A DNA stretch of 64,000 bases from an uncultured Bacteroidales bacterium (GTDB taxonomy: Bacteria; Bacteroidota; Bacteroidia; Bacteroidales; VadinHA17): NCBI GenBank assembly GCA_963806555.1, contig CAWDYR010000017.1, forward strand, positions 267,274-331,273, in the 5' to 3' direction. The notes under the pieces are model-generated. The model was given only the letters and a program-made list of their open reading frames with translations. It was not told the origin of the DNA and did not search any database. The translations under genes and the position numbers were made by a program. The first letter of the stretch is position 1. The number at the start of each line of letters is the position of its first letter. Positions 8,165-29,961 of this stretch are shown here, in pieces.

Positions 8165-9904
8165 ATGAAGAAGTTTCTTCAAATTCGGCTGCAATTTTTG
8201 CTCATTATAATACTTCTCATTTCCTGTTCAAGGAAGACGGAGCAAAGGGTTGTAATCCTGGCTACTACAGATATTCATGGGGTAATACTTCCTTACGATT
8301 TTATCGAAAAAAAGGACCTGAATGCTTCACTTGCGCATGTTTATACCTATGTAAAAAAGACAAGGACAGAAAACAGGAATGTGTTGCTCCTTGATGGCGG
8401 AGATAATTTGCAGGGACAGCCTGAAGTTTACTATTACAATTTCATTGACACGGTTTCTCCTCATTTTAATTCCCTGGTAATGAATTATATGGGCTACGAT
8501 GCCGGTACTGCGGGCAACCATGACATTGAAGCCGGGCACTCGGTCTATGACAGGCTTGTAAAAGAGTATAAATTCCCGATACTTGCTGCCAACGCTGTTG
8601 ATAAAACAGGAGATCCGTATTTCAAGCCTTTTACAATCGTTGAAAGGAATGGATTGAAGATAGCGGTTTTAGGGCTCATCACACCTGCCGTACCAACCTG
8701 GCTACCCCCTGAACTATACTCGGGTATTGAATTCACTGATATGGTTGTGGCTGCAAAGCGCTGGATGCCTGTAATGAAAAAAGAGAAGCCCGACCTTATT
8801 GTCGGACTCTTTCATTCAGGATGGGACGAAAGGGATATTGAGGATAGTGGAACCGGATCATCCTATGAGAACGGCTCAGCATCGGTTGCCTGGGAAGTAC
8901 CCGGCTTCGACATAATTTTTAATGGCCACGACCATAATGTTGTTAACCGGAAATTTGTCAATTCAGCCGGAGATACAGTGCTGATCCTCGACGGAGGAAG
9001 CAGGTCGGAAAAAATTGCCCGTGCCGATGTAATCTTCTCATCAGGGAGAAAGTCAGTAACCGGTGACATTATTAATGCGGATAACTACAGAACGGATCCT
9101 GCCTTCATAAAGGAGTTTTCCGGACAGGAAAAGATTATAAACCTGTATGTTGACAAAGTCATTGCTTCTTCCGAAGAAGATATTTCATCCAGGGTATCAT
9201 ATTTTGGCTCTTCGGCCTTTGTGGATATGATCCATGAGATCCAGCTTGAAATTACAGGGGCTGATGTTTCCTTTGCTGCGCCGCTCTCCTTTGACGTGAA
9301 GATCTCCTCCGGCCAGGTTACAGTAGGCGACATGTTCAAATTATACCGGTTTGAAAATATGCTTTACACAATGTCAATGTCGGGAGCAGAGATCAGAAAA
9401 TACCTTGAGTTCTCATATTCAGAATGGCTTAACACGATGAAAGGTCCGGGAGACATGCTTCTTAAATTCAGACTCGATAAATCCGGAAAACCTGCGCTGA
9501 CGAATGGTAAGGCATGGCTGAAAAATCAACCTTATAATTTTGATTCTGCTGCAGGGATCGACTACGTTGTTGATGTAGGAAAACCTGAAGGGGAACGGGT
9601 TCTGATCAAAGCATTTTCAAATGGCAAACCATTCGAATTGAACAAAACATACCGGGTGGCAGTTAACTCGTACAGAGGGAACGGTGGCGGAGGTCATTTC
9701 ACTGAGGGAGCGGGAATTAACAAAAATGATCTCGCTAAGCGGTTGATATCTTCCACTGACAGGGATTTAAGGTACTATATCATGAAATCGCTTGAATCAA
9801 AGGAAGTAATCAAGCCACTGGCCCTTAATAACTGGAGAATTATACCTGAGGAGTGGGTTAAAACTGCAAAAACGCGTGAGTATAAACTCTTATTCGGCAG
9901 ATAG
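8165..9904 (+). CDS. secreted bifunctional metallophosphatase/5'-nucleotidase lipoprotein
   Basis: Lipoprotein signal (LLISCS), calcineurin-like motifs TTDIHG, GGDNLQG, GNHD and GHDH, and a C-terminal 5'-nucleotidase-like domain. Confidence 0.8.
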   Translation: MKKFLQIRLQFLLIIILLISCSRKTEQRVVILATTDIHGVILPYDFIEKKDLNASLAHVYTYVKKTRTENRNVLLLDGGDNLQGQPEVYYYNFIDTVSPHFNSLVMNYMGYDAGTAGNHDIEAGHSVYDRLVKEYKFPILAANAVDKTGDPYFKPFTIVERNGLKIAVLGLITPAVPTWLPPELYSGIEFTDMVVAAKRWMPVMKKEKPDLIVGLFHSGWDERDIEDSGTGSSYENGSASVAWEVPGFDIIFNGHDHNVVNRKFVNSAGDTVLILDGGSRSEKIARADVIFSSGRKSVTGDIINADNYRTDPAFIKEFSGQEKIINLYVDKVIASSEEDISSRVSYFGSSAFVDMIHEIQLEITGADVSFAAPLSFDVKISSGQVTVGDMFKLYRFENMLYTMSMSGAEIRKYLEFSYSEWLNTMKGPGDMLLKFRLDKSGKPALTNGKAWLKNQPYNFDSAAGIDYVVDVGKPEGERVLIKAFSNGKPFELNKTYRVAVNSYRGNGGGGHFTEGAGINKNDLAKRLISSTDRDLRYYIMKSLESKEVIKPLALNNWRIIPEEWVKTAKTREYKLLFGR

Positions 9905-9961: not shown

Positions 9962-10591
9962 ATGAAAACAAAGCGCAAAATAGTTAATGATGGAAGTATG
10001 CTTCCCCTTGTTGAAGAGTTTTTTACTGTCCAGGGAGAAGGTTACCATACGGGTGAAGCTGCCTGGTTTATTCGTCTGGGAGGATGTGATGTGGGATGCA
10101 ACTGGTGTGATTCACGATTTGCATGGAATCCTGATATTCACCCGCTTGTTGATGCAGAGACTATTATTGCACATGCAGCTCTTTCTGGCACAAAATCTGT
10201 AGTTGTTACGGGTGGCGAGCCGCTTATGTGGAATCTTGATCTCTTATGCTCGGGTCTTAAGAAGAAGAATATCAAGACATTCATAGAGACATCGGGAGCA
10301 TATCCTTTAAGCGGGGAGTGGGACTGGATATGTCTTTCCCCTAAGAAGAATTCACCGCCTGATGCGTTGATTTGTAATAGTGCCGATGAACTGAAAGTAA
10401 TAATTGAAGTAAAGCATGATTTTGAATGGGCAGAAAAATACCGGACGTACGTTAATGAAGGATGCCGCCTTTTTCTGCAACCAGAGTGGAGCAGGTTTGA
10501 TACAATTATACCCGAAATTGTCGGTTATGTCAAAAAAAATCCTGAGTGGAAGATTTCACTCCAGGTTCACAAGTATATGCATATACCATAA
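9962..10591 (+). CDS. queE: 7-carboxy-7-deazaguanine synthase (radical SAM)
   Basis: LPLVEEFFTVQGEGYHTGEAAWFIRLGGCDVGCNWCD contains the CX3CX2C cluster and the QueE N-terminal motif. Confidence 0.85.
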   Translation: MKTKRKIVNDGSMLPLVEEFFTVQGEGYHTGEAAWFIRLGGCDVGCNWCDSRFAWNPDIHPLVDAETIIAHAALSGTKSVVVTGGEPLMWNLDLLCSGLKKKNIKTFIETSGAYPLSGEWDWICLSPKKNSPPDALICNSADELKVIIEVKHDFEWAEKYRTYVNEGCRLFLQPEWSRFDTIIPEIVGYVKKNPEWKISLQVHKYMHIP

Positions 10592-10598
10592 CGACGTT

Positions 10599-12536
10599 AT
10601 GCGGATTTTCTTAACGATATTTCTGTTAACAGCTTCCTGCTTCATCTCAGGAACGACGGAAGCCCAGAATTATCATACTACTTCCAGTAAAGCCCTGAAA
10701 GTATATAAGGACGGGGTTTCCAACTTTGAATTTCTCGATTACCGGAATGCGGAATTTTATCTTAAACAGGCCGTTCAGATAGACAGCAAATTCTATGAAG
10801 CCTATATGGTGCTTGGTGAACTGCTGCTGAAGCAAAGGCGTTACTCTGAAGCCGCCGAGAATTACCACATGGCTGTTAATTTAGATTCGTTGGTCTATAA
10901 GCCGGTATTCTTCAGCCTGGCGACAGCTGAATTTATGTCGGGCAACTACGTGGATGCACTCAGACATTATGAGAAATATCTCAACACTGAAAAAATTTCT
11001 GAGAAGAACAGGGATGAGGCAATCAAAAATGTAAAAAACTGCCACTTTGCTATTGAAGCATTAAAGCATCCTGTTCCATTTAGTCCTGTCAGCGTCGGAG
11101 ATGGTATAAATACGGCCGCTGATGAGTATTGGCCATCCATTACCGTGGATGGTCAGACCATGATGTTCACAAGGCAGTCAAAACCCATCCAGACAGCAGG
11201 AGCAAGAAGTATTCCCCAGGAAGATTTCTATTTAAGCTTTCAGTCAGGCAATGGCTGGCAAAAAGCAGTAAACGCTGGATATCCTCTTAACACTCCTCAA
11301 AATGAAGGAGCCCAGAGTCTGTCATCTGATGGCACCTATATGTTCTTTACAGCCTGTGAGCGCCCCGGTGGTTTAGGAAGCTGCGATATCTTCTTTTCGG
11401 CATTCAATAACGGAAAATGGTCATTTCCCTTTAACCTTGGCGCTCCTGTGAATTCCTCCAAATGGGAATCACAGCCATCGATAAGTTCAAACGGCAAAAT
11501 GCTGTTTTTTTCGAGTAACAGGCCCGGGGGAGAAGGTGGCAAGGATCTCTGGTATTCAGTTATCAATGAGAAAGGGAAATGGGCAAACCCTGTAAATCTT
11601 GGGAAAACGATAAACAGCCCGGGCGATGAGATGTCACCCTTTATACACTTCGACGGACGCACACTATATTTCTCTTCGGATGGCTGGGCCGGAATGGGAG
11701 GTTTTGATATTTATAAGACCACAATGAAGGAAGACACAACCTGGACTGAACCACAAAACCTTGGTTATCCTATTAATACATACAATGACGAAACGGGGCT
11801 CATTATAAATTCTGAGGGACAAGAAGCCTATTATTCTTCAAAAAAGGACGATCAGAATGGCAAGAATATCTATTCTTTTACCCTTTATGAGTCTGTAAGA
11901 CCCGATCCCGTAGCTTACCTTAAAGGGAAAGTATCTGACAGAATAAATGGAAAAATGCTGGTTGCAGGTTATGAACTTATCAATCTTTCGACAGGGAAAC
12001 CGGTTGTCAGTAATACTACAGACGGCAACGGGAATTTCCTTGTTTGTCTTCCTTCAGGATTTAATTATGCCCTTAACGTAAGTAAGGCGGGTTACCTTTT
12101 TTTCTCTGAAAACTTCATGTTCGAGGGAGACCACCCGGTATTAAAACCATATCTGATGCCGATAAAGCTGAGCCCGTTAAAGGTAGGTGAAAGGATGCTT
12201 CTCGCCAATGTCTTCTTTGAGACTGATTCATGGGAATTAAAGAAAGAATCAAGGATAGAACTGAATAAGCTAATGGATCTTCTCTCGGATAATATGGAAC
12301 TTGTTGTTGAAATAGGAGGGTATACCGATGCCACGGGAAACAATGAACACAATCTCGTCCTCTCGGAGAAAAGGGCTCTTTCGGTCGTCAATTTCCTTGT
12401 GGAAAACGGGATCGCGGCCGACAGGCTTAAATACAAAGGTTATGGCAACAGCTCGCCAATAGGGGATAATATAACATCCGAAGGCAGGAAGCTTAACAGG
12501 CGAACAGAAGTCCAGATCCTTGACCTGAAAAAATAA
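10599..12536 (+). CDS. OmpA-family protein with TPR, TolB-like (PD40) repeats and a C-terminal OmpA peptidoglycan-binding domain
   Basis: Start moved to ATG 10599 (MRIFLTIFLLTASCF signal peptide), because the track start 10416 overlaps queE. The C-terminus VVEIGGYTDATGNNEHNLVLSEKRALSV is OmpA_C-like. Confidence 0.8.
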   Translation: MRIFLTIFLLTASCFISGTTEAQNYHTTSSKALKVYKDGVSNFEFLDYRNAEFYLKQAVQIDSKFYEAYMVLGELLLKQRRYSEAAENYHMAVNLDSLVYKPVFFSLATAEFMSGNYVDALRHYEKYLNTEKISEKNRDEAIKNVKNCHFAIEALKHPVPFSPVSVGDGINTAADEYWPSITVDGQTMMFTRQSKPIQTAGARSIPQEDFYLSFQSGNGWQKAVNAGYPLNTPQNEGAQSLSSDGTYMFFTACERPGGLGSCDIFFSAFNNGKWSFPFNLGAPVNSSKWESQPSISSNGKMLFFSSNRPGGEGGKDLWYSVINEKGKWANPVNLGKTINSPGDEMSPFIHFDGRTLYFSSDGWAGMGGFDIYKTTMKEDTTWTEPQNLGYPINTYNDETGLIINSEGQEAYYSSKKDDQNGKNIYSFTLYESVRPDPVAYLKGKVSDRINGKMLVAGYELINLSTGKPVVSNTTDGNGNFLVCLPSGFNYALNVSKAGYLFFSENFMFEGDHPVLKPYLMPIKLSPLKVGERMLLANVFFETDSWELKKESRIELNKLMDLLSDNMELVVEIGGYTDATGNNEHNLVLSEKRALSVVNFLVENGIAADRLKYKGYGNSSPIGDNITSEGRKLNRRTEVQILDLKK

Positions 12537-12618: not shown

Positions 12619-13455
12619 TCAGATCGTAATCATGGTGTTCAGATAGTTATTCGCTGAATTTTCAGCATTTACTTTGGTGGCGGGAATTGTAAAGAATATC
12701 CCTGATCCGTTTAATCCATTACATTCGATCCAGAGGGAACCCTCCATCATCTGAATCAGGTTTCTCGTTAAGATGAGATTTACCGCCGAATAAGTATCAT
12801 TAAATTTGTTAAGTGCCTGGGCAGGGTCCTGCGTTTGAAGGAACTCCTGTGACTTAAAGTAACCCTGACCTGAATCAAGGATATAAAAGGTCATCTTCTC
12901 ATCCCTGAAGTAATAACCAACCTTGATATACCCCGATGTTGTGTTGCTGAGAGCATTCTGAAACAGGTTACGGACAACCCTTGTTGCCCTGTTGCTGTCA
13001 ATCAGATACTCAGCGTTCTTAAACGATTGGTTTTCAGTTACAAGGATAAGCTCCTTGTATTTGTCCTTTCTTAGTATCTCCCTGAATTCTGAAAAGAGAT
13101 CATTGAACATCCTGTCAGGATTACAAATTCTTTGTTCGGCTATTGAATTACCCGTATCAATGATTGCCGAATCAAGAAAATTGTCAAACAGGGATATCAG
13201 TTGTTCGCAGGATTCATAGATAAGATTGCTGAACTCTTCCCTTTCAGCTTCTTCATATTCCTTTTTGTTCAGGAGAAAGGCAAATGCAACTATGGCATTC
13301 ATCTGGGTTCTCATTTCGCGTGACAATCCGGTCAGGAGTGAAGGACAATTAATCATACTATGTTTCAACGATTCCATAATCTTCACCGCTTTCAGGTCTT
13401 TTGGTCCGGACGCTTCCGGTACACCACCTTTGTTATATCCCGAAATATCAAACAT
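12619..13455 (-). CDS. soluble histidine-kinase-like protein (DHp + HATPase_c) lacking the phospho-acceptor His
   Basis: The H-box position reads LSREMRTQMNAI (consensus SHE[LIM]RTPLNAI). The N box (QNALSNT), G1 (DSGQG) and G2 (GLNGSG) are present. There is no TM or sensor domain. Confidence 0.65.
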   Translation of the reverse strand: MFDISGYNKGGVPEASGPKDLKAVKIMESLKHSMINCPSLLTGLSREMRTQMNAIVAFAFLLNKKEYEEAEREEFSNLIYESCEQLISLFDNFLDSAIIDTGNSIAEQRICNPDRMFNDLFSEFREILRKDKYKELILVTENQSFKNAEYLIDSNRATRVVRNLFQNALSNTTSGYIKVGYYFRDEKMTFYILDSGQGYFKSQEFLQTQDPAQALNKFNDTYSAVNLILTRNLIQMMEGSLWIECNGLNGSGIFFTIPATKVNAENSANNYLNTMITI

Positions 13456-13480: not shown

Positions 13481-14227
13481 CTACTTTAAATTTCTACTCA
13501 GTTTCCTGGCGTCCTTTTTGTAAATGCTTTTCGATCTTTCAATTACAGCAAGCTGTTCAGCTGCTTTTTGCATTTCTTCAGTTTTAATGTAGCACAATGC
13601 AAGATACCACCTGGCATGATCGATATAAAGGTTGTTATTGTCCTCGATGACGTTCCCAAATGATTTCTTAGCTTCGGGATAATTTTCTATTTCAAAATTT
13701 GAAATCCCTTTCAACAGAGCGGCTTGCATATCGCCAGGCTTGTTTTCCAATGCCCGTGAGAAATAGATAGCCGCGATTCTGTAATCATGTATCTCATAAT
13801 ATTCAAGCGCCAGGTTAAAATCAGGATTGCCGATCGCCACCCCCGACCGCAGGGAGGAGGTTGCTTCGTAAGCCCTGTAGTATCTTTCCATGATCTCCTC
13901 TTTACCCGGGTTTTTATTGGAAATCAGGGCGATTCCACCCAGGGTAACAAGGCATGCAATCAATGCTGCATATTTAATTTTGATAAGCCGTTGATGCTTT
14001 CGGGGTGAAACATCGGTTTCCCTTTTCTTCTCAATCGAGTTGAGCTTGTTCCTGAGGTTGATAACATCCTGTTTTTTGAGAATGGCATCGGCTTTTTGAC
14101 GGATTCCGACTTCGTTCCGAAGCTTTTGGTTTCCATCCATTTCTCTTCTGAACCATTGCTTTTCAGCTTCATCCATCTCTCCGGCATTATACCGTTCGAT
14201 GAAATATGAAAAATCGTTTGTTTTCAT
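13481..14227 (-). CDS. single-pass membrane protein with extracytoplasmic TPR repeats (anti-sigma-like topology)
   Basis: 248 aa: an ~85-aa charged N-domain, a TM (YAALIACLVTLGGIALI), then TPR-like repeats (YRIAAIYFSRALE..., YPEAKKSFGNVIE...). Confidence 0.7.
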   Translation of the reverse strand: MKTNDFSYFIERYNAGEMDEAEKQWFRREMDGNQKLRNEVGIRQKADAILKKQDVINLRNKLNSIEKKRETDVSPRKHQRLIKIKYAALIACLVTLGGIALISNKNPGKEEIMERYYRAYEATSSLRSGVAIGNPDFNLALEYYEIHDYRIAAIYFSRALENKPGDMQAALLKGISNFEIENYPEAKKSFGNVIEDNNNLYIDHARWYLALCYIKTEEMQKAAEQLAVIERSKSIYKKDARKLSRNLK

Positions 14228-14424
14228 GATCTTGCAGACTGTTTATATTTTATTAAATCCATATTAATATCAGTTATTAAGCTGATGCATACGGTTACAC
14301 AGGTATTCTGTGTGCCTGCTCTACAGATATTAATCAGTTATACTAACCTCAGTATCTCCTGACTTCTCAAGCGTATTCCAAACATCCGGAGGTAAAACCT
14401 TCCGGGTTTATCATTATGTTTCCA

Positions 14425-14483
14425 AAAAGCACTCCACTGAAGGAGTTTATTATTAAAAGCACTCCACTGAAGGAGTTATTATT
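14425..14483 (-). repeat. tandem 30/29-bp direct repeat; each unit is a small hairpin plus T-run on the minus strand (terminator/attenuator-like)
   Basis: AAAAGCACTCCACTGAAGGAGTT(T)ATTATT occurs twice back to back. Each unit has an ACTCC/GGAGT stem, and on the minus strand it is followed by GCTTTT. It lies 40-100 nt downstream of the peptide ORF stop. Confidence 0.55.
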
Positions 14484-14521
14484 AACTGCCCTCTCCCGGG
14501 CAAAAGGGTTTTATTTAGTGT

Positions 14522-14659
14522 TCAAATCTGGACTAATGGGGGAACAGGCCGCAATATAGGATCACCGGCATCACCGCCTTTAACACATATCATCTCCTCA
14601 GTTGAAAGGATAAACTCATTAAAAATCTCCTCAGTCTGTTCGGGTTTAATTTTTTTCAT
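14522..14659 (-). CDS. 45-aa precursor peptide with a double-glycine (GG) leader
   Basis: My translation is MKKIKPEQTEEIFNEFILSTEEMICVKGG|DAGDPILRPVPPLVQI*. The last 12 leader residues fit LSxxELxxIxGG. It is below the 60-aa track cutoff and sits 4 kb from a C39-peptidase ABC exporter. Confidence 0.7.
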   Translation of the reverse strand: MKKIKPEQTEEIFNEFILSTEEMICVKGGDAGDPILRPVPPLVQI

Positions 14660-14895
14660 TGGTTCAAATTTTAGTCGTTGATACTTGGTTTAGGTAATTC
14701 GCATTTCTACTGTTACATGTCGGAAAACCTGATTTTGTGACAAAGAAAAATCAACTATTTTTAGAAAAAATCACTAATTATTGAAAATCAAAGATTTACA
14801 AAAGGAGAAATTATCGATATTTGTAATCAGTTTGGCATTTCCATTTAAAGTTGTGATCTTTAGATGGGGAAATTTTACATACCGGCAGCGACCTG

Positions 14896-17800
14896 ATGAT
14901 TTTAAAGAGTCATATACTGTTGTTTATTGCACTTCTTATTTGCACCATCAGCCCTTCTGAGGCAAAGATGGCGGGATCAGTCCTTTACAACTTTTCTCCG
15001 ATTCCCGAAAATGACCCCACAGGCAAAACCGGAATTCTTCAGAAGGATAATTTTACTCCGATTCTTGAGAAGTTGAATTCCGATTTCCAGGTTTCTGTTA
15101 ACTCCGGCGATACATTAAAAGCCAGGAATATAGTAAATTCCATACTAAAGATTCTCAACGGGAATGATACCGATGATTTAATCTTTTCAAGCTCCCGGTA
15201 CTATGTTGGCGTATTTTATTTAATTGCCGGAAAAAATACAGAGGCAATGGAGTGGCTTAAACTTGCGTCGGCCGGAAGGGAACAACTTAAATGCGAGGAT
15301 GAGATTTATTCAAAATGCCTTTACAACATTGGGCTTGCATACCATAACCTCGGGGACTTCAAAAGCATGGAACAGTACACACTTCGCTCCCTGGCCATTG
15401 TCAGAAAACTGAATGGGGAAAATGCTCCTCTTTTAATAAGAAGCCTATCCAGCCTGGTCACGGCAAATTTTGGACTCAATGAATATAATAAAGCTATAGT
15501 CTATGGTAATCAAGCACTTAAACTTATAAACGGGCAAAAAGGAAATTTGACCAATGAGATAGCCGGCTTATATGCAAATTTAGGGATATGCCATGCAAGA
15601 CTGTCAGACTACTCCAAGGCGGCGCTTTACCTTGAGAAAGCAGAATCAATTTATAATCAGATGCCTTTTACCGATAATGCAGTCTATATTAATCTGTTGA
15701 ATAATCTTGGCGCCACATATTTTCAAATGGGATCCAGGGAAAAATCAGATGAGTATTTTAACAGGGGATTTGAAATGGCAAGAACATCAAATTCAATTAT
15801 GTCACTTAACTTCCTGAACAGTTTTGCAGTTGTTCTTGCAAAGGCAGGAAAAGTGACTGAAGGTGAGGAACTGATTTTAAATGCCCTGGAAAGAGCAAGA
15901 AAATCATCAGGCCCCGACTCAAAAGATTACTTTGAAGTGCTGAAGAACTATGCTGAATATCTCCGGTCATATAAAATCGACATGGGTAAATCACGGCTTC
16001 AGTATGAAAAGTGTCTGGTGTATCTCGAAACCCATGAAGAGGATATTTTCTTAAGAAACCCGATAATTTTTGGATATGCCCTCGTGCTGACCGAGACCGG
16101 CGATTCAGGTAAGGCACTCGATATTATTCAGGAATTGCTTTTTTCCCGCATACCGGGGAAAAAAGAATATACAGCAGTGGAAAATCCGGAAATTGAATTG
16201 ATTGAACCGGATCAGTGGTCTCTTGAAGTACTGAAGGCGAAATACAGGATACTCTGGGATATCTTTAATAAATCCCGGAACTGGGGGTACATGGTAGCTG
16301 CTTCAGGAACATCAGAACTGATTGTAGCTTTGCTTGAAAAGGTCAGGATCAATATAAGTGAAGAAGATAGCAGGTTGATTCTTGGAGACCGCTACAGGGA
16401 CTTTTACCTGTTTGCAATCCGGGATTTTGAACTTTGTTTCAGGCATACGGGAAATGCAGAATACAGGGAGAAGGCGTTTGAATTTTCAGAGAAAAGCAAA
16501 GTTGCAGGGCTTCTTGCTTCAACCAGGGAGCTTAAAGCCACTCAGTTTCATATACCTTCCGATGTAGCCGACCTGGAGCGGGGGCTTAAGTCAGAGATCA
16601 GCGTTTATAATGCACACATCTCAGACGAAGAAACACGGAAGGTGCCCAATGCTAATCTTCTTGCCGAATGGAAGGAAATTGTATTTGACGCAACTGCGAA
16701 ACGGGATTCCCTGATCAGGCTCTTTGAAAAACAGTACCCTGAGTACTATCTTATCAAGTATAATACAAAGGTTATAGAACCCCGTGATATTCCTTCAATA
16801 GCAGGGAGGAGCACAAACTACTTAAATTATGTTGTATCAGATTCCATTATATACATCTTTCTCACTAACAGGAAATTCAGGCAGCTTATTACTGTTCCTG
16901 TTGATACAGGATTTTTTAACAATGTGAGAGAATTCAGAAGCCTTCTTTCAATGCCATCGCCTCTTAGCGACGCAAAATCCGAATTCATCAGGTACCAGCA
17001 TTCAGGCATCCGGCTATATAAGACAATCATCGAACCCGTCAGAAAGTATCTTATCTCCAACAGGATTTTAATTTCCCCCGATGATATTCTATCATATATA
17101 CCATTTGAGACACTTCCTGTTGCACCGGTTTCAGAAGATGAAATCCTCTATAGTGAACTGCCATATCTTATGAAAGAATTCAACATTTCATATACTTATT
17201 CGGCAACTCTTCTGGCTGAACAGGCAAAGAAAGGGTTAAGGCTTTCAAACAGCCTGATAGCGTTTGCCCCGGTATATACGGAAAGCATAAACATCGACTC
17301 CCTGTTATTGACAAGGGATGTGAGGCAATCAATCATTACTGATCTTCCATTTGCACGACAGGAGGCAGAATATGTATCAGATCTGACAGGAGGAAGGCTC
17401 TACATAAATAGTGGAGCAACCGAAGCAGTTTTCAAGGAAAAAGCAGGAGATTTCGACATTATTCATATGGCAATGCACACGATCCTTAATGATCAATTTC
17501 CGATGCATTCGAAAATGTTGTTTTATCAGGCAAAAGATTCAGTTGAAGATGGATTTCTTAACACTTATGAAGTTTATGATATCCCTTTGAAAGCGAAAAT
17601 GGTGATTCTCAGCTCCTGTAATACAGGGACCGGAAATTTGTATTCGGGAGAGGGAATCCTCAGCCTGGCGAGGGGATTTTTATATTCAGGAAGCCAGTCA
17701 GTGGTTATGTCGATGTGGGAGATTGAAGACAGATCCGGAACGGAGATAGTAAAGAACTTCTACAACCACCTGAAAAGAGGTGAGCCAAAGAGCAAAGCCC

Positions 17801-17991
17801 TCAAAAGGGCCAGGCTCGATTATCTTAAGAATGCCGATATGCTCAGGTCACATCCTTATTTCTGGTCATCGCTTATTATATATGGGAATAATGACCCGCT
17901 CTATTATTCCAGACAAATCTTAATTACTGCAGGCGCAGTTGTAATCGCCGTCAGCCTGTTTCTTCTGCTGTATTTTCACAAATTCAGGTAG
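14896..17991 (+). CDS. TPR-repeat CHAT-domain (caspase-fold) protein with signal peptide and C-terminal TM anchor
   Basis: 1031 aa: N-terminal signal (ILLFIALLICTISPSEA), many TPR-like repeats, a C-terminal CHAT region with His (DIIHMAMHT) and Cys (VILSSCNTG), and a terminal TM (ITAGAVVIAVSLFLLLYF). Confidence 0.8.
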   Translation: MILKSHILLFIALLICTISPSEAKMAGSVLYNFSPIPENDPTGKTGILQKDNFTPILEKLNSDFQVSVNSGDTLKARNIVNSILKILNGNDTDDLIFSSSRYYVGVFYLIAGKNTEAMEWLKLASAGREQLKCEDEIYSKCLYNIGLAYHNLGDFKSMEQYTLRSLAIVRKLNGENAPLLIRSLSSLVTANFGLNEYNKAIVYGNQALKLINGQKGNLTNEIAGLYANLGICHARLSDYSKAALYLEKAESIYNQMPFTDNAVYINLLNNLGATYFQMGSREKSDEYFNRGFEMARTSNSIMSLNFLNSFAVVLAKAGKVTEGEELILNALERARKSSGPDSKDYFEVLKNYAEYLRSYKIDMGKSRLQYEKCLVYLETHEEDIFLRNPIIFGYALVLTETGDSGKALDIIQELLFSRIPGKKEYTAVENPEIELIEPDQWSLEVLKAKYRILWDIFNKSRNWGYMVAASGTSELIVALLEKVRINISEEDSRLILGDRYRDFYLFAIRDFELCFRHTGNAEYREKAFEFSEKSKVAGLLASTRELKATQFHIPSDVADLERGLKSEISVYNAHISDEETRKVPNANLLAEWKEIVFDATAKRDSLIRLFEKQYPEYYLIKYNTKVIEPRDIPSIAGRSTNYLNYVVSDSIIYIFLTNRKFRQLITVPVDTGFFNNVREFRSLLSMPSPLSDAKSEFIRYQHSGIRLYKTIIEPVRKYLISNRILISPDDILSYIPFETLPVAPVSEDEILYSELPYLMKEFNISYTYSATLLAEQAKKGLRLSNSLIAFAPVYTESINIDSLLLTRDVRQSIITDLPFARQEAEYVSDLTGGRLYINSGATEAVFKEKAGDFDIIHMAMHTILNDQFPMHSKMLFYQAKDSVEDGFLNTYEVYDIPLKAKMVILSSCNTGTGNLYSGEGILSLARGFLYSGSQSVVMSMWEIEDRSGTEIVKNFYNHLKRGEPKSKALKRARLDYLKNADMLRSHPYFWSSLIIYGNNDPLYYSRQILITAGAVVIAVSLFLLLYFHKFR

Positions 17992-18581
17992 TTCTTATAT
18001 TCGGGATCCCCTTTTATAAGTTCCATCAGGGCTTCTTTGCTCAGATACTTTTTCCGCCTGGCGTATGTTTCATTCTTAAGATTCATTCTTACAGCGATCT
18101 CTTCGTACGACAGACCCTCCGAAAACAGAGTCAGAATTTTTTGGGAATCAGCCTTTAACTTTTGAAACGCCCTGCTGACTATTTTTTCAAGGATCAGTTC
18201 ATCCACATCATTATCAACATCCGGAATATCGGTATCAATTTCAATGTTTTTAACACTTTTTCTTAGCTGGCAACTCCAGATGTTCCTGGCTATTCCAAAA
18301 AAATAGCCCTTCAGATCGGATGTCAGCTTAAACTCATTGTCCGAGATCTGATTATAGAAGGCTATTATCGTCTCCTGAAACACATCCGACACATCCGCTT
18401 CGGTACCGCTGTTCTTTAAGACATAGTGCCTGACGGGCTGGCGGTAATTGTCGTACAACCAGTTAAGAATCTTTTCGTCTTGCCGGCGGATGCCTTCAAT
18501 TATTGTATTATCTGAGATCTTACGGAACAATCGCTGATTTTTACCCGATAATAAGTTGACAAATATAGTATTTCCTGACAT
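17976..18581 (-). CDS. sigma-70 family RNA polymerase sigma factor (ECF-like, 201 aa)
   Basis: Region-2-like FQETIIAFYNQI...YFFGIARNIW and a region-4 HTH, LSYEEIAVRMNLKNETYARRKKYLSKEAL. Its 3' end overlaps the CHAT gene by 16 bp in a convergent arrangement. Confidence 0.75.
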   Translation of the reverse strand: MSGNTIFVNLLSGKNQRLFRKISDNTIIEGIRRQDEKILNWLYDNYRQPVRHYVLKNSGTEADVSDVFQETIIAFYNQISDNEFKLTSDLKGYFFGIARNIWSCQLRKSVKNIEIDTDIPDVDNDVDELILEKIVSRAFQKLKADSQKILTLFSEGLSYEEIAVRMNLKNETYARRKKYLSKEALMELIKGDPEYKNYLNL

Positions 18582-18691: not shown

Positions 18692-20878
18692 ATGGCCTTT
18701 CCGTTTGTAAAACAATATGATGCTATGGATTGTGGTCCCGCCTGCATTAAGATGGTAGCCGGGTATTACAAACGGAGTTATTCGCTCGATTATCTCCGGA
18801 AAAAATGCTATATAACAAGGGAGGGGGTTTCATTTCTCGGCCTTTCAGAGGCTGCTGATTCATTGGGATTCAGGACGCTGGGTGTGAAGATCACATTTGA
18901 AATGCTGGCAGATAAAGTTACAATGCCATGCATCGTACACTGGGGACAGAAACATTTTGTTGTAGTTTACAGAATCAAAAATGACAAAATCCGGGTTGCC
19001 GATCCTGCAACAGGACTAATTCAATATACACGGGATCAATTCGAAAAAAAATGGATCAGCTCGGTAACCGATGGAAAACAGACAGGCCTGGTCCTGATAA
19101 TAGAACCGACTCCGGCGCTGTTTACGGCTGAAGATGAGCAGAAAAAACCCGGTGGATTCCGGTTTTTGCTGAAGTACTTTAAGCTTTACAAAAAATTTCT
19201 GGGCCAGTTGATTCTTGGCCTGGTACTGGGAAGCTGTATTCAGCTGATCATACCATTTCTGACCCAGTCAATTATTGATATAGGTCTGAATAATAATGAC
19301 ATAGGGTTTATTTACCTGATTCTCTTCGCCCAGCTTGCCCTTGTTGCAGGGAGGTTGTCGGTTGAATTTATAAGGGGATGGCTTCTTCTTTATATAGGAT
19401 CCAGGGTCAACGTTGCAATAATCTCAGGTTTTTTGCAGAAACTGATGGCCCTTCCGGTCGCATTTTATGACACAAAGCTGACAGGGGATATTCTGCAGAG
19501 AATTGAGGACAACAACAGGATTGAGGAGTTTCTCACTTCGGCAAGCCTCAGCATTCTCTTTTCATTCTTTAACCTTATAATATTCGGTATTGTACTGGCT
19601 ATTTTCAGTATCAAGATATTTGTATTGTTTCTTACGGGCACTACCCTGTACATTTTATGGGTCTCCCTGTTCATGAAATCAAGGGCCAGGCTTGATAACC
19701 AGCGCTTCAGGGAAATGTCAGCATCCAATTCGAAGCTCATTAGTATCATTAACGGGATGCAGGAGATTAAGCTAACACAGAGTGAGCTTAGCAAACGATG
19801 GGACTGGGAAAAACATCAGGCTTCTTTGTTCGGGTTGAGGGTAAAGGGACTTGGCCTGATTCAGTATCAATCGGCAGGGGCGACCCTCATCAGCGAGATA
19901 ATGAATATCCTTATTACGATAATTGCGGCAACAGCAGTTCTTAAGGGAAATATGACCCTGGGTATGATGCTTGCAGTTCAATTTATTATCGGACAGCTAA
20001 ATGTTCCGGTAAACCAGATAATCGGATTCTTCCGGATGTCTCAGGACGCTAAAATGAGCCTCGACAGGCTTGCCGAGGTTCATAATATGGAAGATGAGGA
20101 AACCGAGTCAGAAAATAAAATCAATAAACTTCCTGACAATAAAAATATCCGTGTAAACAACCTGTCATATCAATACGAAGGACCACGTTCTCCTTTTGCC
20201 TTAAAAAATGCTGACCTGTTGATAGAACAGAACAAGGTTACGGCAATAGTGGGAGTAAGCGGAAGCGGAAAGACCACACTGTTGAAAATGCTTCTTGGAT
20301 TTTATCAGCCTGTAACGGGAGAAATTCTGATAGGAGATACCCCTGTTTCAAATCTAAGTCTGAAACTCTGGCGCGAAAAGGTGGGTGCGGTAATGCAGGA
20401 TGGCTTTTTGTTTCCCGACACCATTGCAGGAAATATAGCACCCGGTTCGGAGGAAATCGATGAGAGCAGGATGAAAAAGGCTGCTGAAACTGCAAATATC
20501 AGGGGATTTATCGACTCCCTGCCACTTGGCTACAACACCAGGATCGGAGCAAACGGCCATGGATTGAGCGAGGGACAGAAGCAAAGGTTGCTCATCGCCA
20601 GGGTGATATATAAAGATCCTGATATTTTAATTTTTGATGAAGCCACAAATTCCCTCGATGCCAATACTGAAAAGGCAATCGTTGAAAACCTGGCTGATTT
20701 CTATCGGGGTAAAACTGTCATTATTGTTGCTCACCGACTGAGCACTGTCAGGAATGCCGATAAAATTGTTGTTCTGGATACGGGGCAGATAACTGAAACG
20801 GGAAATCATGAGAGTCTTATTGAAAAAAGAGGAACATATTATAATCTCGTTAAAAACCAGCTTGAACTTGGTAATTGA
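18692..20878 (+). CDS. peptidase-C39-domain ABC transporter (bacteriocin/peptide processing and export, PCAT)
   Basis: The N-terminus KQYDAMDCGPACIKMV (catalytic Cys) and WGQKHFVVVY (His), six TM segments, Walker A GVSGSGKTT, signature LSEGQKQR and Walker B ILIFDEATNSLD. Confidence 0.9.
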   Translation: MAFPFVKQYDAMDCGPACIKMVAGYYKRSYSLDYLRKKCYITREGVSFLGLSEAADSLGFRTLGVKITFEMLADKVTMPCIVHWGQKHFVVVYRIKNDKIRVADPATGLIQYTRDQFEKKWISSVTDGKQTGLVLIIEPTPALFTAEDEQKKPGGFRFLLKYFKLYKKFLGQLILGLVLGSCIQLIIPFLTQSIIDIGLNNNDIGFIYLILFAQLALVAGRLSVEFIRGWLLLYIGSRVNVAIISGFLQKLMALPVAFYDTKLTGDILQRIEDNNRIEEFLTSASLSILFSFFNLIIFGIVLAIFSIKIFVLFLTGTTLYILWVSLFMKSRARLDNQRFREMSASNSKLISIINGMQEIKLTQSELSKRWDWEKHQASLFGLRVKGLGLIQYQSAGATLISEIMNILITIIAATAVLKGNMTLGMMLAVQFIIGQLNVPVNQIIGFFRMSQDAKMSLDRLAEVHNMEDEETESENKINKLPDNKNIRVNNLSYQYEGPRSPFALKNADLLIEQNKVTAIVGVSGSGKTTLLKMLLGFYQPVTGEILIGDTPVSNLSLKLWREKVGAVMQDGFLFPDTIAGNIAPGSEEIDESRMKKAAETANIRGFIDSLPLGYNTRIGANGHGLSEGQKQRLLIARVIYKDPDILIFDEATNSLDANTEKAIVENLADFYRGKTVIIVAHRLSTVRNADKIVVLDTGQITETGNHESLIEKRGTYYNLVKNQLELGN

Positions 20879-20886
20879 TATACAGA

Positions 20887-22176
20887 ATGGATGACAAGGA
20901 ACAAAATATAATATATTCTGAACCTGTAAACGAAATAATGGGACGTCCCCCCGGAAGAGTGTTACGATGGGGAAATGCAATTATGTTACTGGTTTTTGTG
21001 CTCTTTTTATTTTTCGCCTGGATTATAAAATATCCTGATACCATTCCTGCTCCGGTAGAAATTACTACTGTCATTCCTCCGGTAACCCTGGTATCAAAAA
21101 TTACAGGAAGAATCAAAAAGCTGTATGTCAGCGACAGGGAGAATATCAGCAAGGGACAGTTGATTGCAGTTATGGAGACTGCAGCATCGGTAGATGAACT
21201 GAATATCCTGCGCCAATTCATCGATACCATCAGGAACCCTGAATCAATGAAGCTTTCAGGATTGCCTGAATTTACTGAACTTGGAGAGATCCAGGAATAC
21301 TGGGGCACTTTCCGGAAAACCCTTTCAGATTTTAACAATTACATCATAAATGATTTTTACGGCAAAAAAGTCAGTTCAATAACCGATGAAATAGACGGGA
21401 TTCTGGTCTATATTGGCCGGGTAAAGGTAAAAGAGAGTTTTTTCACTGAAAATCAGCTGATTGAAACTAAAAAGTTCAGAAGGGATTCCATGCTTTATCT
21501 GAGTGGCGTTTTTTCAGAGACTGAGCTTGAAAAATCGCGTCAGTCACTTCTGAGGATGAATATTGAACTTCAGCAGGTGCGTCTTGACCATTCTGCAAAA
21601 TCGATTGAGCTTGCAGAAAAAAAACAGCTTCTGCAGGATTATAAGATTAAAAGGATTGAAGAGGGGGAGAGATATTATTCTGTTCTGAATGAATCGTTTC
21701 TGAATCTCAAAGCACAGGTGAAGATTTGGGAGAATACTTATCTCCTCATTTCGCCTTTCAGCGGCGTTGTAACCTTCACCAGATTCTGGAGCGAAAACCA
21801 GACCGTAAACAAGGATGAACCTGTACTTAGTATCGTTCCGCTGGACGCGGGTGATTACGTCGGAAGGATATATCTCAAAATGAATCGTTCGGGGAAAGTA
21901 AAAACAGGGCAGGAAGCAAATATCAAGTTAAGCGGATTCCCGTACCTTGAATACGGCATGTTAAAAGGTGTGATCAAGTCCAAATCGCTTGTGCCCTCGG
22001 GCGATACTTACGTGATAGAGCTCAGCTTGCCTTCCGGCCTGACCACCCTGTACGGCAGGAAACTCGATTTTACCCAGAATATGCAGGGCACCGCTGAGAT
22101 TATCACTGACGACCTCAGTCTGCTCCGGAAAATAATCAATCCGTTCCGGTACCTTGTCTCCAGAAACAGAAGCTAA
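20887..22176 (+). CDS. HlyD-family secretion adaptor
   Basis: ATG lies 9 nt after the PCAT stop (the track TTG 20875 is also possible). It has an N-terminal TM (AIMLLVFVLFLFFAWII), a long coiled coil and a C-terminal beta domain. Confidence 0.8.
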   Translation: MDDKEQNIIYSEPVNEIMGRPPGRVLRWGNAIMLLVFVLFLFFAWIIKYPDTIPAPVEITTVIPPVTLVSKITGRIKKLYVSDRENISKGQLIAVMETAASVDELNILRQFIDTIRNPESMKLSGLPEFTELGEIQEYWGTFRKTLSDFNNYIINDFYGKKVSSITDEIDGILVYIGRVKVKESFFTENQLIETKKFRRDSMLYLSGVFSETELEKSRQSLLRMNIELQQVRLDHSAKSIELAEKKQLLQDYKIKRIEEGERYYSVLNESFLNLKAQVKIWENTYLLISPFSGVVTFTRFWSENQTVNKDEPVLSIVPLDAGDYVGRIYLKMNRSGKVKTGQEANIKLSGFPYLEYGMLKGVIKSKSLVPSGDTYVIELSLPSGLTTLYGRKLDFTQNMQGTAEIITDDLSLLRKIINPFRYLVSRNRS

Positions 22177-22177
22177 T

Positions 22178-22351
22178 TTATTTCTTTGAATAGGGTTCGT
22201 AGTCGTCATCAACTGTTGATGAAGAAAGTGATGAACCCGGCATCCCTTTTTTTCCACTGCCGGCCTGGTTCTTTTTTATGTATTTCTGATATAACCTTAC
22301 TCCTGCAAAAGCCAGGGCGACTGCCAAAAGTATTATTTCAGTTCTTTCCAT
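22178..22351 (-). CDS. 57-aa single-TM small protein (hypothetical)
   Basis: My translation is MERTEIILLAVALAFAGVRLYQKYIKKNQAGSGKKGMPGSSLSSSTVDDDYEPYSKK*. There is no other support. Confidence 0.3.
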   Translation of the reverse strand: MERTEIILLAVALAFAGVRLYQKYIKKNQAGSGKKGMPGSSLSSSTVDDDYEPYSKK

Positions 22352-22646
22352 TTTATTATTGGTTTGTGTTACTAAAACAGTGTTTTACCACGATCCGGAT
22401 ATTCTTTAGATTCAGCGTTCAAATATACTTATAATAAAAGTTTTGTACCTGAAATCAGAATGAGATTTGTAATAAAGAAATGAGTTTTTAAGCCAGGCTT
22501 CAGGCGCTTAATGATTGATTATCATTTTAATTTAAGGTAAAACTTTGAGTTTTATTAAATAATTCAATATTTTCGTACTCTGAAAAATCCATGGCTTGCC
22601 ATGGTGTGCTGAATTTGGGAAGATATTGAACCTTAATGGATTGAAT

Positions 22647-24633
22647 ATGATTATAGAAAATCCGGATGACACTGTTCGTGAAGAACAGAACGGCGCGAAT
22701 GAAGATGCTGCCGGTACTGAGAACCCTTTAAAAGCGGAAAAAGCGGAAAAAGCCGGATCTGCAGAAGCTGAAGAAACAAAGGAACCGGATACTGAAAGTA
22801 TCAAAAAGAAGAGCGAACCTGAAAAAAATGATGTTCCTGCAGTAGCCGAGAAACACTCCTCCGTACCGGAAGAGTTTCATGATCTGGAAGATATCGAACT
22901 TCCTCCGGTTGATTACTCAGGTTATTCAAAGCATGAGCTTGTCGAAACTCTTGCCCTCATCATAGAGAACCGCCCTCCTTCAGAGATCCGTGAAGATGTG
23001 GAAAGGATCAAGACTTTTTTCTATAAGAAGATAAAGGGAGAAGCGGAAGAGAGAAAAACTAAATTTCTGGAAGGCGGAGGGAAGATTGAAGATTACAAGA
23101 TCTATGTTGATCCTCTCGATTACCGTGTAAAGGAACTTCTTGAAAAATTCAGGGAGAAAAAGAATGATTTCAATAAGGTTCAGGAAGCCGAGAAATACGA
23201 TAATCTTAAGAAGAAATACGATATAATTGATAAGATAAAAGATCTTGTCAACCGTGAAGAGTCAATAAATAAAACTTTCCATGATTTCCGTTCACTGCAG
23301 AACGAATGGCACTCAATTGGTGTAGTTCCTCAGGCATCGTTGAAAGATCTCTGGGAAAACTATCATCACAGCGTTGAAGTATTTTACGATTATATCAAGA
23401 TAAATAAGGAGCTCCGTGATCTTGATCTGAAAAAAAATCTCGAGATCAAGATTTCGTTGTGTGAAAAGGCTGAAGAGCTCCTTCTTGAACCTAATCCGGT
23501 AAATGCTTTCAGATTTCTGCAGGATTATCATAACCAGTGGCGGGAAATAGGACCGGTACCTCAGGAATCCAAAAATGAGATCTGGGAAAGATTCAGGGAA
23601 GCAACATCTCAGATCAACAAAAGACATCATGAGTACTTCGAAAAACAAAAAGATGATCAGAGAAAGAACCTTGATGCCAAAATAGCCTTGTGTGAAGAAG
23701 TTGAAGCCATCAACCTTCAGGAAATAAAGAGTTTCAGGGATTTCGACGAAAGAGCAGATAAGATTGTTGCCCTTCAGAAAATGTGGAGGACAATAGGGTT
23801 TGCACCCAAAAAACAGAACAATAAGGTCTACCAGAGGTTCAGGGAGGCCTGCGATACCTTCTTTGAGAAAAAGAGAAGTTTCTACGCTGATAATAAGGAG
23901 ACACAGCTAAACAACCTTCAGCTAAAAACCGAACTGTGCATTCAGGCTGAAGCACTTCAGGAGAGCACTGACTGGAAAACCACATCAGATGCTCTTATCA
24001 GGCTTCAGAAAGAATGGAAGGAGGTAGGTCCCGGTTCCGCGAAAACAGTCTGAGAAACTCTGGAAACGATTCCGTAAGGCCTGCGACCATTTCTTTAACA
24101 GGAAAGCAGAGTACTTCGCAAATCTTGATACCTCTTATGAGGATAATCTGAAGGCAAAGCTTGCTATCATTGACGAACTTGAGAAATTTGAACCAGGAAC
24201 TGATGTTCAGGCTGCATTTGAACGACTTAAAGATCTCCAGAGAAAATGGACTGAAATCGGTTTTGTACCTTTCAATAAAAAGGAAGAGATCACAAACAGG
24301 TACAGAAACGCCCTGAATAAGGAATTTGACAAGCTGAAAATAGGAGATGAGGATAAGAGCATCCTTAAATACAGGACAAAGCTTGACAATCTTAAAGCAA
24401 ATCCCAAAGCATCAAGAAAAGTAAGGAATGAAAGGGATAAATTTTTTACCAAGATCAAACAGCTTGAAAGTGATATTGTTCTCTGGGAAAATAATATTGG
24501 ATTCTTTGCCAAATCGACAAATGCTGACACTATGATCAGGGAGGTTCAGGAAAAGATTGAAAATGCAAAGAAAATGATTAAGACACTTGAAGAAAAAGTC
24601 AAAATGATAGACCAGTCAGGTCTCGATGATTGA
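22647..24633 (+). pseudogene. DUF349 repeat protein with an apparent frameshift near 24034
   Basis: Repeated W(K/R)xIGxVP...W.RF...F modules. The frame breaks at WKEVGP (CCC run) and continues in +1 as VPRKQSEKLWKRFRKACDHFF... to TGA 24631-24633. Confidence 0.75.
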
Positions 24634-24675: not shown

Positions 24676-26284
<1,609 letters not shown>

Positions 26285-29475: not shown

Positions 29476-29683
29476 AGATCTGATAAAATGAGATTATCCG
29501 GAAGCATCCTGATGGTCATGTTAGTTTTTTTAGCTTCAGGGTGCCGGGAGCAACATCTCAGTAGATTCCTTATACTTTAGTCGACACAAAGCAGACCAGC
29601 AGACCTCTTAACAGCCGACCTTAAAAATTGTTAATATCTCAATTTTAGATCATTTAAAATTCAATTACCTTTGGTCCGTATTG

Positions 29684-29872: not shown

Positions 29873-29961
29873 AAGTTCAAAGCTTTCGGGAAAAAAAGCG
29901 CAGAATCATTTTTGATTCCCCTGATTCTTTATATCCCGGCAGCATAAAATGAAGTGCACAA

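Follow-up and report, generated by a model that had tools for sequence, protein, structure and literature searches.

Is a minus-strand open reading frame (ORF) of only 45 codons, at 14522..14659 of a 64,000-nucleotide stretch of an uncultured Bacteroidales genome, a gene at all, and if so, is its product a toxin, a signal or something else? The stretch, here called the window and numbered from its first letter, belongs to contig CAWDYR010000017.1 of assembly GCA_963806555.1. A sequence-only reading had pointed to a double-glycine (GG) leader in the frame and had left the choice "bacteriocin or quorum peptide" open. We find that 14522..14659 (-) is a real gene, conserved across a clade of uncultured Bacteroidales, and that the first 29 residues of its product form, by their sequence, a GG leader. 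On the second question the evidence leans toward a signal over an antibiotic: we put at about even the chance that the product is an exported signalling peptide for an envelope switch made up of a sigma factor of the extracytoplasmic function (ECF) group, an anti-sigma factor and a protease in which tetratricopeptide repeats (TPRs) are joined to a CHAT domain.

The gene runs from an ATG at 14659 to a TGA at 14524..14522. Its 45-residue translation, MKKIKPEQTEEIFNEFILSTEEMICVKGGDAGDPILRPVPPLVQI, taken from the ORF listing and read again from the minus strand, reproduces exactly the coordinates, strand, length and product given earlier. Codons 1-29 (14573..14659) specify the leader MKKIKPEQTEEIFNEFILSTEEMICVKGG and codons 30-45 (14525..14572) the core DAGDPILRPVPPLVQI. 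The frame had been called unannotated, which is not wholly accurate, for gene callers already predict the protein in public collections. A word-indexed search of these recovered the window's own product together with 24 homologues of 42-69 aa, the named ones all being labelled "hypothetical protein", and in their alignment E11, I12, L18, EEMI, VKGG, D30 and P34 are invariant. A strict six-frame search for a Met, the leader pattern, a core of 10-40 aa and a stop returned a single ORF in the window, against a mean of 0.07 in windows simulated with a first-order Markov model, 6.5% of which held at least one. The leader pattern on its own is modestly improbable by chance, which is suggestive, and hence the case for a gene rests on comparison.

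The loci for this comparison were chosen through the downstream gene for a 248-aa TPR protein, independently of the peptide, in a collection with one genome per species. It held 152 matching stretches, from which 80 loci were fetched, all from metagenome-assembled genomes (MAGs) of uncultured Bacteroidales, and a profile of the peptide was run against their six-frame translations. The peptide ORF was recovered in 75 of the 80, on the same strand and 190-460 nt upstream of the TPR gene; four of the remaining five have too little upstream DNA and the fifth is a true loss, so that the ORF is present at 75 of 76 informative loci. An exhaustive profile search brought the family to 76 representative clusters. 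Across 12 loci carrying homologues, the variable sites at codon positions 1, 2 and 3 number 17, 16 and 39 of 46, and the ratio of nonsynonymous to synonymous polymorphism (pN/pS) is 0.30 in the proposed frame, the remaining five frames giving 0.44-1.39. Constraint is seen in the leader (0.33) as well as in the core (0.28), and we conclude from these ratios that the entire peptide is under purifying selection. The 75 distinct leader sequences show the same periodicity, with nucleotide entropies of 10.3, 10.5 and 21.3 bits at the three codon positions, and their invariant residues are written with several synonymous codons: four each for G-1, G-2 and V-4, five for L-12 and two for E-8. The check on conservation and synonymous variation that had been proposed for the frame thus comes out in favour of the sense strand.

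These figures bear directly on the view that the ORF is untranslated and that the conserved sequence is instead a regulatory RNA or the antisense 47-aa ORF at 14416..14559 (+), which the sequence-only reading had named as its competitor. The shortness of the gene speaks for such a view, as does an antisense ORF of at least 40 aa that overlaps the gene in half of the related loci; set against these are the third-position variation, the synonymous codons at invariant residues and the start and stop positions conserved in 75 loci, besides an Rfam scan that returned nothing near the peptide locus. The antisense frame overlaps the gene by only 38 nt and otherwise runs through a spacer that is rich in indels, not conserved and impossible to align between relatives; this spacer also carries the window-specific duplication described below. 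Its counterparts at other loci range inconsistently from 0 to 118 aa, and a search of the frame against NCBIfam and Pfam matched no family. We reject the antisense reading, and the untranslated alternative as a whole is almost certainly wrong.

The copy number of the gene varies in some genomes. One locus (L079, 8975..9905) has five identical tandem copies with a 196-nt period and 99% identity, and another (L040, 9468..9796) has two diverged copies with different cores. At a locus from a long-read MAG (L014, about 9558..9668) the peptide ORF stops early, right after the GG (…VKGGDSQRSNT, then stop), probably owing to a frameshift or assembly indel in the core.

The leader supplies the first indication of how the product is handled. 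It carries L-12, E-8, M-7, V-4, G-2 and G-1, with the GG at residues 28-29, and its positions -12 to -1 read LSTEEMICVKGG, as had been stated. Among 77 unique members of the family, L-12 is kept in 74, S/T-11 in 77, E-8 in 76, M-7 in 77, V/I-4 in 77, K/R-3 in 76 and the GG in 77, which gives the pattern L[ST]x[ED]EMIx[VI][RK]GG for the end of the leader. These near-invariant positions match both the consensus L-12 xxx E-8 L-7 from mutagenesis of ComA and the co-crystal of LahT150, in which leader residues -4, -7 and -12 sit in a hydrophobic groove and pockets (PMC6363468). Hence, the precursor with a GG leader that had been proposed on the minus strand agrees with every sequence rule tested. 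By these rules the peptide belongs to the double-glycine-leader class and to no curated family: the match to curated GG-leader models that had been suggested did not materialize, as scans of NCBIfam (E <= 10) and Pfam (E <= 0.01) returned no family.

A candidate processing enzyme is encoded about 4 kb from the peptide gene, at 18692..20878 (+). This is a peptidase-containing ATP-binding cassette (ABC) transporter (PCAT) of 728 aa with the domains Peptidase_C39 (Pfam, 2.4e-37), ABC_membrane and ABC_tran, which aligns end to end with PCAT1 (4ry2, 1e-107) and ComA (8hf7). Its residues 1-123 align with LahT150, PCAT1 and the peptidase domain of ComA. The catalytic residues Gln10, Cys14, His88 and Asp104 have aligned counterparts in LahT150 and PCAT1 and are kept in 41 species. 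The gene for an HlyD-family membrane-fusion (adaptor) protein at 20875..22176 (+) overlaps the exporter's stop codon and is translationally coupled to it. Pattern and profile searches found no second GG-type ORF in the 64 kb. We strongly infer that the C39-ABC exporter and the HlyD adaptor cut the precursor after Gly29 and export the 16-mer DAGDPILRPVPPLVQI; the C39 alignment and the catalytic residues support the earlier suggestion that the transporter at 18692..20878 serves this peptide.

The exported 16-mer would have a monoisotopic mass of 1698.97 Da and a pI of 4.2, and would be an unmodified, linear, proline-rich and slightly acidic product with a free C-terminal Ile. The 74 distinct cores of the family, gathered from the profile-search clusters and the loci, are 12-18 aa long, with 26% Pro, 17% Ile and no aromatic residues, and a typical one reads [DE]x[DE]P[IV][ILV][KL]Pxx-PP[VI][KRI][IL]. 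The net side-chain charge is -1 in 40 of them, 0 in 27, -2 in five and +1 in two; the first residue is Asp or Glu in 59, the penultimate one is Lys or Arg in 49, and the last is Ile or Leu in all 74.

The view that the core leaves the cell unmodified has to be weighed against the possibility that the gene encodes the precursor of a RiPP (a peptide made by the ribosome and modified after its translation), with enzymes encoded elsewhere introducing Asp/Glu-Lys lactam or ester cross-links or hydroxylating prolines before the GG cleavage. GG leaders are frequent among RiPP precursors (PMC6363468), and the cores do keep acidic residues at the start, most of them also having a basic residue (Lys or Arg) at mid-core and another close to the C-terminus. 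These basic residues are variable, however, as the penultimate position shows; Cys occurs in only one of the 74 cores, and Ser and Thr follow no conserved pattern. Neither the window, to a distance of about 15 kb, nor the 20-kb loci contain a gene for a RiPP-modifying enzyme (ATP-grasp, radical-SAM/SPASM, LanM/LanB, YcaO or hydroxylase). A single radical-SAM gene is present nearby and specifies a 209-aa protein that, from its size and sequence, we take to be the housekeeping queuosine enzyme QueE. With these points on the two sides, a modified product appears very unlikely.

The peptide gene is part of a block of seven, the other members of which code for the HlyD adaptor, the exporter, an ECF sigma factor, a periplasmic TPR-CHAT protease, a single-pass TPR protein (the 248-aa protein mentioned above, hereafter TPR248) and a soluble kinase-like protein. 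In the window the order is kinase-like (-), TPR248 (-), peptide (-), TPR-CHAT (+), ECF sigma (-), exporter (+) and HlyD (+), and the genes recur in identical order at related loci wherever the contig extends that far, together with flanking QueE-like, OmpA/PD40 and DUF349 genes. All 80 fetched loci have the block at one chromosomal position, which fits vertical inheritance over a patchy accessory trait. Distant members of the family, with cores ending in ...PPVTTDPEI, also retain the seven genes. At one locus (L095) the left flank has been swapped for unrelated genes with the block kept, from which HlyD can be taken as the left edge of the unit. Between HlyD and DUF349 in the window lies a 57-aa ORF (22178..22351, -) with a hydrophobic N-terminus and no family match; it is the sole small ORF in the area, was detected in 35 of the 80 loci and is absent from the one with the swapped flank. 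Two contigs of a single MAG, bin16(0d), each carry a TPR gene region (L033 and L056, with 59% and 53% identity to the window), and the pair could reflect a second paralogous locus or a mixed bin.

With the block in view, the antimicrobial reading can be considered. According to it, the product is an unmodified bacteriocin or a microcin-like peptide, possibly a proline-rich one with an intracellular target, and the sigma factor, the CHAT and TPR proteins and the kinase-like protein do no more than regulate its production. A GG leader, a C39-ABC exporter and an HlyD-family adaptor are together the classical export set of class II bacteriocins and microcins. The precursor gene has been amplified in the two genomes described above, and no part of the block diverges faster than the core, for which pairwise distances average 0.55. 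The end of the core, P-P-[VI]-[KR]-[IL], also loosely resembles the C-termini of insect proline-rich antimicrobial peptides. Indeed, the exporter, the adaptor and the multi-copy precursors are equally typical of bacteriocin loci, a point that tells against a signal. The core itself is nevertheless unlike a class II bacteriocin, which would be cationic or amphipathic-hydrophobic and typically 25-60 aa long: it is much shorter, neutral or acidic, neither cationic nor amphipathic, and without GxxxG or disulfide features, and no bacteriocin family model matches it. A search for immunity genes, to about 15 kb in the window and throughout the fetched loci, found none, and no gene for a small membrane protein flanks the precursor at any locus. 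The block is, moreover, fixed and syntenic across the clade and not a patchy accessory island. Short, neutral or acidic Pro-rich cores, the lack of immunity and modification genes and the fixed chromosomal position point to a signal rather than a toxin, and we regard the antimicrobial reading as unlikely. Of the two readings left open earlier, the quorum peptide thus gains and the class II bacteriocin recedes.

If the peptide is a signal, it does not look like one of the ComC type sensed by a membrane kinase, and by the features tested it is neither such a pheromone nor a class II bacteriocin. The block has no response regulator and no membrane sensor histidine kinase. Its only kinase-like product (12619..13455, -) is a soluble HisKA plus HATPase_c protein of 278 aa with no sensor domain and no transmembrane segment. 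In the window its phospho-acceptor His is replaced by Arg (SREMRT, not SHEMRT), a change seen in 13 of 41 species, all in a subclade with leaders ending in VKGG, and the gene is absent from six related loci. This protein may be a pseudo-kinase.

The proposed sensing side is made up of the products of three other genes. The gene for TPR248 (13481..14227, -) lies downstream of the peptide gene and is co-oriented with it. The protein it encodes has an N-terminal three-helix domain (residues 1-72), a transmembrane segment (84-102), a linker and about three extracytoplasmic TPRs (135-247); the N-terminal domain is conserved, and the linker is flexible, poorly conserved and modelled with low confidence. 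When its first 82 aa were modelled alone with AlphaFold2, three helices resulted with a predicted local distance difference test score (pLDDT) of 80.6. The only matches of this model in the PDB were eight chains, every one belonging to a complex in which the ECF anti-sigma factor RslA or RsiW is bound to its sigma factor, at template-modelling scores (TM) of 0.62-0.68 and root-mean-square deviations of 1.3-2.1 A over 47-49 columns, with E-values of 1-9 that are not significant and count against the match. High E-values are expected for a domain this small. No Pfam anti-sigma family matches TPR248, and a PDB profile search with its N-terminal domain gave nothing relevant, both of which weigh in the same direction; nor does the anti-sigma-like domain have a zinc motif. 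For the whole protein, sequence and profile searches of the PDB returned only designed or consensus TPRs or noise, and Foldseek with the full-length AlphaFold2 model (pLDDT 64) gave weak, generic TPR matches and nothing on the N-terminus. The weak structural neighbours include the three-TPR peptide binders YbgF, Hop TPR2A with MEEVD, and RapI, at E-values of 0.02-0.3, which are non-significant. The modelling is consistent with an anti-sigma factor, and we treat the protein as a candidate anti-sigma factor, a candidate peptide receptor, or both.

Divergent from the peptide gene, the TPR-CHAT protease of 1031 aa (14896..17991, +; CHAT 3.2e-53, TPR_12 7.2e-28) begins with a hydrophobic, signal-like segment; it further has an array of TPRs akin to those of kinesin light chain, a full-length CHAT domain, a C-terminal transmembrane helix and a basic HKFR tail. 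A His-Cys dyad is conserved in the motifs IIH(L/M)AMHT (IIHMAMHT in the window) and LSSCNTG. Going by hydropathy, we predict that the bulk of this protein faces the periplasm. It has no detectable sequence similarity to solved TPR-CHAT structures. The third component is an ECF-type sigma-70 factor of 201 aa (17976..18581, -), which matches Pfam Sigma70_r2, Sigma70_r4_2 and Sigma70_ECF and scores 62 bits with TIGR02937 (cutoff 42.9); its nearest solved relative is E. coli sigma-E.

A similar set of parts occurs in Myxococcus xanthus, where DdvA is a single-pass anti-sigma factor with a periplasmic TPR-CHAT module, the CHAT domain of which is proposed to act as the site-1 protease of a regulated proteolysis that frees the ECF sigma factor DdvS, the activating signal being unknown (PMC11506125). 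The block shares with DdvA-DdvS an ECF sigma factor encoded beside a TPR-CHAT module that is anchored in the membrane, faces the periplasm and has a His-Cys dyad, and also a small three-helix cytoplasmic domain on a single-pass protein. It differs in that the anti-sigma-like domain (13481..14227) and the TPR-CHAT module (14896..17991) are on two proteins, in lacking the CHCC zinc motif, and in including a GG peptide and its exporter. Unlike DdvA-DdvS, it has no genes for cyclic-oligonucleotide-based antiphage signalling (CBASS), CRISPR or other known defence systems; a PADLOC scan of the block reported no defence system and only generic ATPase and TPR matches.

On the production side the closest parallel is ComC, the precursor of the competence-stimulating peptide (CSP), with its exporter ComAB, and the related BlpC and PlnA types. 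There, too, a short, unmodified linear peptide has a GG leader with L-12, E-8 and hydrophobic residues at -7 and -4, a C39-ABC transporter acts with an accessory protein (the block's exporter being similar to ComA over its full length), and the precursor gene lies beside dedicated regulators under its own conserved promoter-like motif. The block departs from this plan in having no pair of membrane histidine kinase and response regulator, its soluble kinase-like protein lacking the acceptor His. Sensing is instead proposed to run through the ECF sigma factor, the anti-sigma-like TPR protein and the TPR-CHAT protease. The host, moreover, is a Gram-negative member of the Bacteroidales, and the core is acidic or neutral and Pro-rich, not cationic or hydrophobic.

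A further point of comparison is provided by peptide-binding TPR modules. TPR domains such as those of the RRNPP proteins (Rap, NprR, PlcR and PrgX), Hop TPR2A and PEX5 bind short, extended linear peptides and often clamp the free C-terminus, features that can be set beside the C-terminal Ile or Leu found in every core and the YbgF, Hop and RapI neighbours of TPR248. RRNPP receptors are cytoplasmic and their peptides are exported by Sec and re-imported, whereas the TPR domains of the block are extracytoplasmic. GG precursors with a C39-ABC exporter that serve signalling or biofilm formation and not killing include RaxX/RaxB of Xanthomonas and EbfG/PteB of Synechococcus. Their products are larger than the cores described here, RaxX is tyrosine-sulfated, neither system is known to be associated with an ECF/TPR-CHAT module, and neither has a sequence relationship with this peptide. 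Our literature searches on CHAT with ECF in Bacteroidetes, on CHAT with PCAT and on GG peptides in Bacteroidetes found no description of the module.

The DNA around the peptide gene offers a candidate output for such a switch. A bipartite promoter-like motif, TGTCACAAA-N11-CGACATGT (GTCAC-N16-ACATG), lies at 14715..14742 (-), 55 nt upstream of the ATG. It recurs in 75 of 76 loci, always with a 16-nt spacer and at a distance of 44-82 nt from the start codon that follows. Each 20-kb locus has a single copy, ahead of the peptide operon and nowhere else. The rigid spacing fits a two-element promoter, and we infer that the motif is a promoter of the ECF type read by the block's own ECF sigma factor. 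No second copy was found in the window, for example ahead of the sigma, CHAT or exporter genes, even at three mismatches, so that autoregulation of the sigma gene through the motif is unsupported. A second element, GCGAATTACC (also given as GAATTACC), stands at 14693..14702 (-), about 33 nt before the ATG and probably within the 5' untranslated region. Its consensus in the alignment of 75 loci is GAATTAcCC, and a relaxed form occurs in 48 loci at 18-41 nt from the ATG. In the five-copy array of L079, the promoter-like motif precedes copy 1 and the element GAATTACCC precedes each of copies 2-5. The sole informative locus without the peptide gene (L074, 9600..10020) still has GTCAC-N16-ACATG, 105 nt before the TPR gene, and is also without the kinase-like gene. 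Its peptide gene appears to have been lost by a clean deletion, and the locus could be a natural "listener-only" variant.

Downstream of the stop codon, a structured spacer with terminator-like hairpins extends over 14384..14502 (-). It comprises a TGCCC/GGGCA hairpin at about 14487..14502, seen by direct reading of the sequence, a terminator-like unit of the form ACTCC-loop-GGAGT-GCTTTT that occurs twice (14461..14476 and 14431..14446), and, at 14384..14407, a stem of 9 bp. The duplication (29-30 nt, a 23-nt unit being repeated at a spacing of 30 nt, 14425..14477) is specific to the window and is a single copy in its closest relatives (L001 and L002). Over 76 loci, the 100 nt after the stop codon have a median folding z of -1.76 as against -0.29 in a control region. 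This arrangement suggests a short transcript that is expressed strongly, and transcription that also reads through into the genes for TPR248 and the kinase-like protein.

Putting the pieces together, we propose that the exported peptide would be bound outside the cytoplasm by the TPR domain of TPR248, by the TPR array of the membrane-anchored TPR-CHAT protease, or by both. Binding would lead to CHAT-dependent cleavage of the anti-sigma-like TPR248, which would free the ECF sigma factor (17976..18581), and the freed sigma would drive the GTCAC-N16-ACATG promoter of the operon that encodes both the peptide and the putative anti-sigma factor. The outcome would be an autoinducing loop with built-in negative feedback, its production side resembling a ComC/ComAB pheromone and its sensing side a DdvA/DdvS TPR-CHAT anti-sigma switch split over two proteins.

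A loop of this kind makes a prediction on how its parts should evolve together, which we followed in 41 species with complete blocks using partial Mantel statistics in which the distances of two flanking genes, the QueE-like and the OmpA gene, served as controls. The core distance correlates with TPR248 (partial r 0.30; 0.28 for the periplasmic part) and with the TPR array of the CHAT protein (0.26), p being 0.001 in each case. It is uncorrelated with the catalytic domain of the CHAT protein (-0.07), with the sigma factor (0.03) and with the exporter (-0.37). The leader distance, on the other hand, correlates with the exporter (0.41; 0.36 for the C39 domain) and not with the TPR parts, and there is co-variation (0.48) between the two periplasmic TPR regions, that of TPR248 and that of the CHAT protein. 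In these weak tests, then, the leader goes with the enzyme that would process it and the core with the TPR domains, which is the direction that the signal model predicts. We reject physical linkage as the cause of this split because the leader sits between the core and the CHAT gene.

The same data bear on another account, in which the peptide is exported only as far as the periplasm and is a substrate, pseudo-substrate inhibitor or cofactor of the TPR-CHAT protease, much as securin is a partner of separase. Here one can point to the divergent intergenic region that the peptide and CHAT genes share in every locus, to the correlation of the core with the CHAT TPR array and to CHAT-family proteases, for example separase, that are controlled by inhibitory peptides bound to them (PMC11506125). 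When the core was examined by rank-based multiple regression, however, the two parts of TPR248 were the sole positive terms left (beta 0.21 and 0.19, with p 0.017 and 0.021; R2 0.21), and the CHAT TPR term vanishes once TPR248 is included. Furthermore, a Gram-negative PCAT with an HlyD adaptor normally exports its substrate out of the cell (PMC6363468). We consider a dedicated protease partner distinctly unlikely, while noting that this account overlaps with the signal model.

Several observations weigh against the signalling loop itself. The Mantel statistics are weak (R2 0.21), ignore the tree and are confounded by clade structure, and fast-evolving extracytoplasmic sequences could correlate without interacting. 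The leader in fact correlates best with the kinase-like protein (0.53), and the exporter with the kinase-like protein more strongly still (0.79); together these values indicate a clade effect, that of the subclade with VKGG leaders and the His-to-Arg change. A pair test of the ECF sigma factor with the cytoplasmic domain of TPR248, as sigma and anti-sigma factor, gave only 0.17. The putative promoter has a spacing (TGTCAC-N14-CGAC) that is 2-3 nt shorter than that between the classical ECF -35 and -10 elements, and the motif could instead be an operator for another regulator. No gene for an outer-membrane channel is present in the block. Lastly, the right-hand flank (OmpA/PD40 and QueE) is common to all 80 loci, so that part of the conserved neighbourhood is plain synteny.

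Elsewhere in the window, several housekeeping genes seem split or truncated (across 24816..25349, 26325..28290, 29962..31876 and 22596..24053). CTP synthase is a 177-aa fragment, YidC is present as two overlapping ORFs, a TonB-dependent receptor is divided into Plug and barrel ORFs, and the DUF349 protein has 485 aa as against 662-715 aa in relatives, a pattern that suggests assembly indel errors or pseudogenes; the peptide ORF itself agrees with its relatives. The OmpA/PD40/TPR ORF at 10416..12536 (+) has its listed start inside the QueE-like radical-SAM gene, and the product in relatives has 645 aa; its true start is probably a Met near 10600, ahead of a signal-like segment. A cobalamin riboswitch (29664..29878, +; 92 bits) is directly followed by genes for a TonB-dependent receptor, a DUF5074 protein, a periplasmic binding protein, a FecCD permease and an ABC ATPase, which likely form a B12 uptake operon.

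Peptide pheromones processed by C39-ABC exporters are a hallmark of cell-cell signalling in Gram-positive bacteria, and such exporters in Gram-negatives, Bacteroidota especially, are usually read as bacteriocin machinery. To our knowledge, no peptide signalling language has been established in Bacteroidota. Here, a clade of environmental Bacteroidales keeps a tiny GG peptide that does not look like a toxin together with four partners: the exporter, the ECF sigma factor, the anti-sigma-like TPR248 and the caspase-like, periplasmic TPR-CHAT protease. We offer, as a tentative proposal, that this is the first peptide autoinducer circuit described in Bacteroidota, with a PCAT-exported, unmodified, Pro-rich 12-18-mer that would be read by a periplasmic TPR and trigger the TPR-CHAT protease, removal of the anti-sigma factor and release of the ECF sigma. 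The family is invisible to current family models, and the profile and the leader and core rules now permit its annotation. If the proposal is true, the circuit would join GG-peptide export with the regulated proteolysis of anti-sigma factors, and would provide both a testable ligand for a TPR-CHAT sensor and an example of the type of signal that activates switches such as DdvA. It would thereby add a peptide language, and a new receptor logic, to the Bacteroidota.

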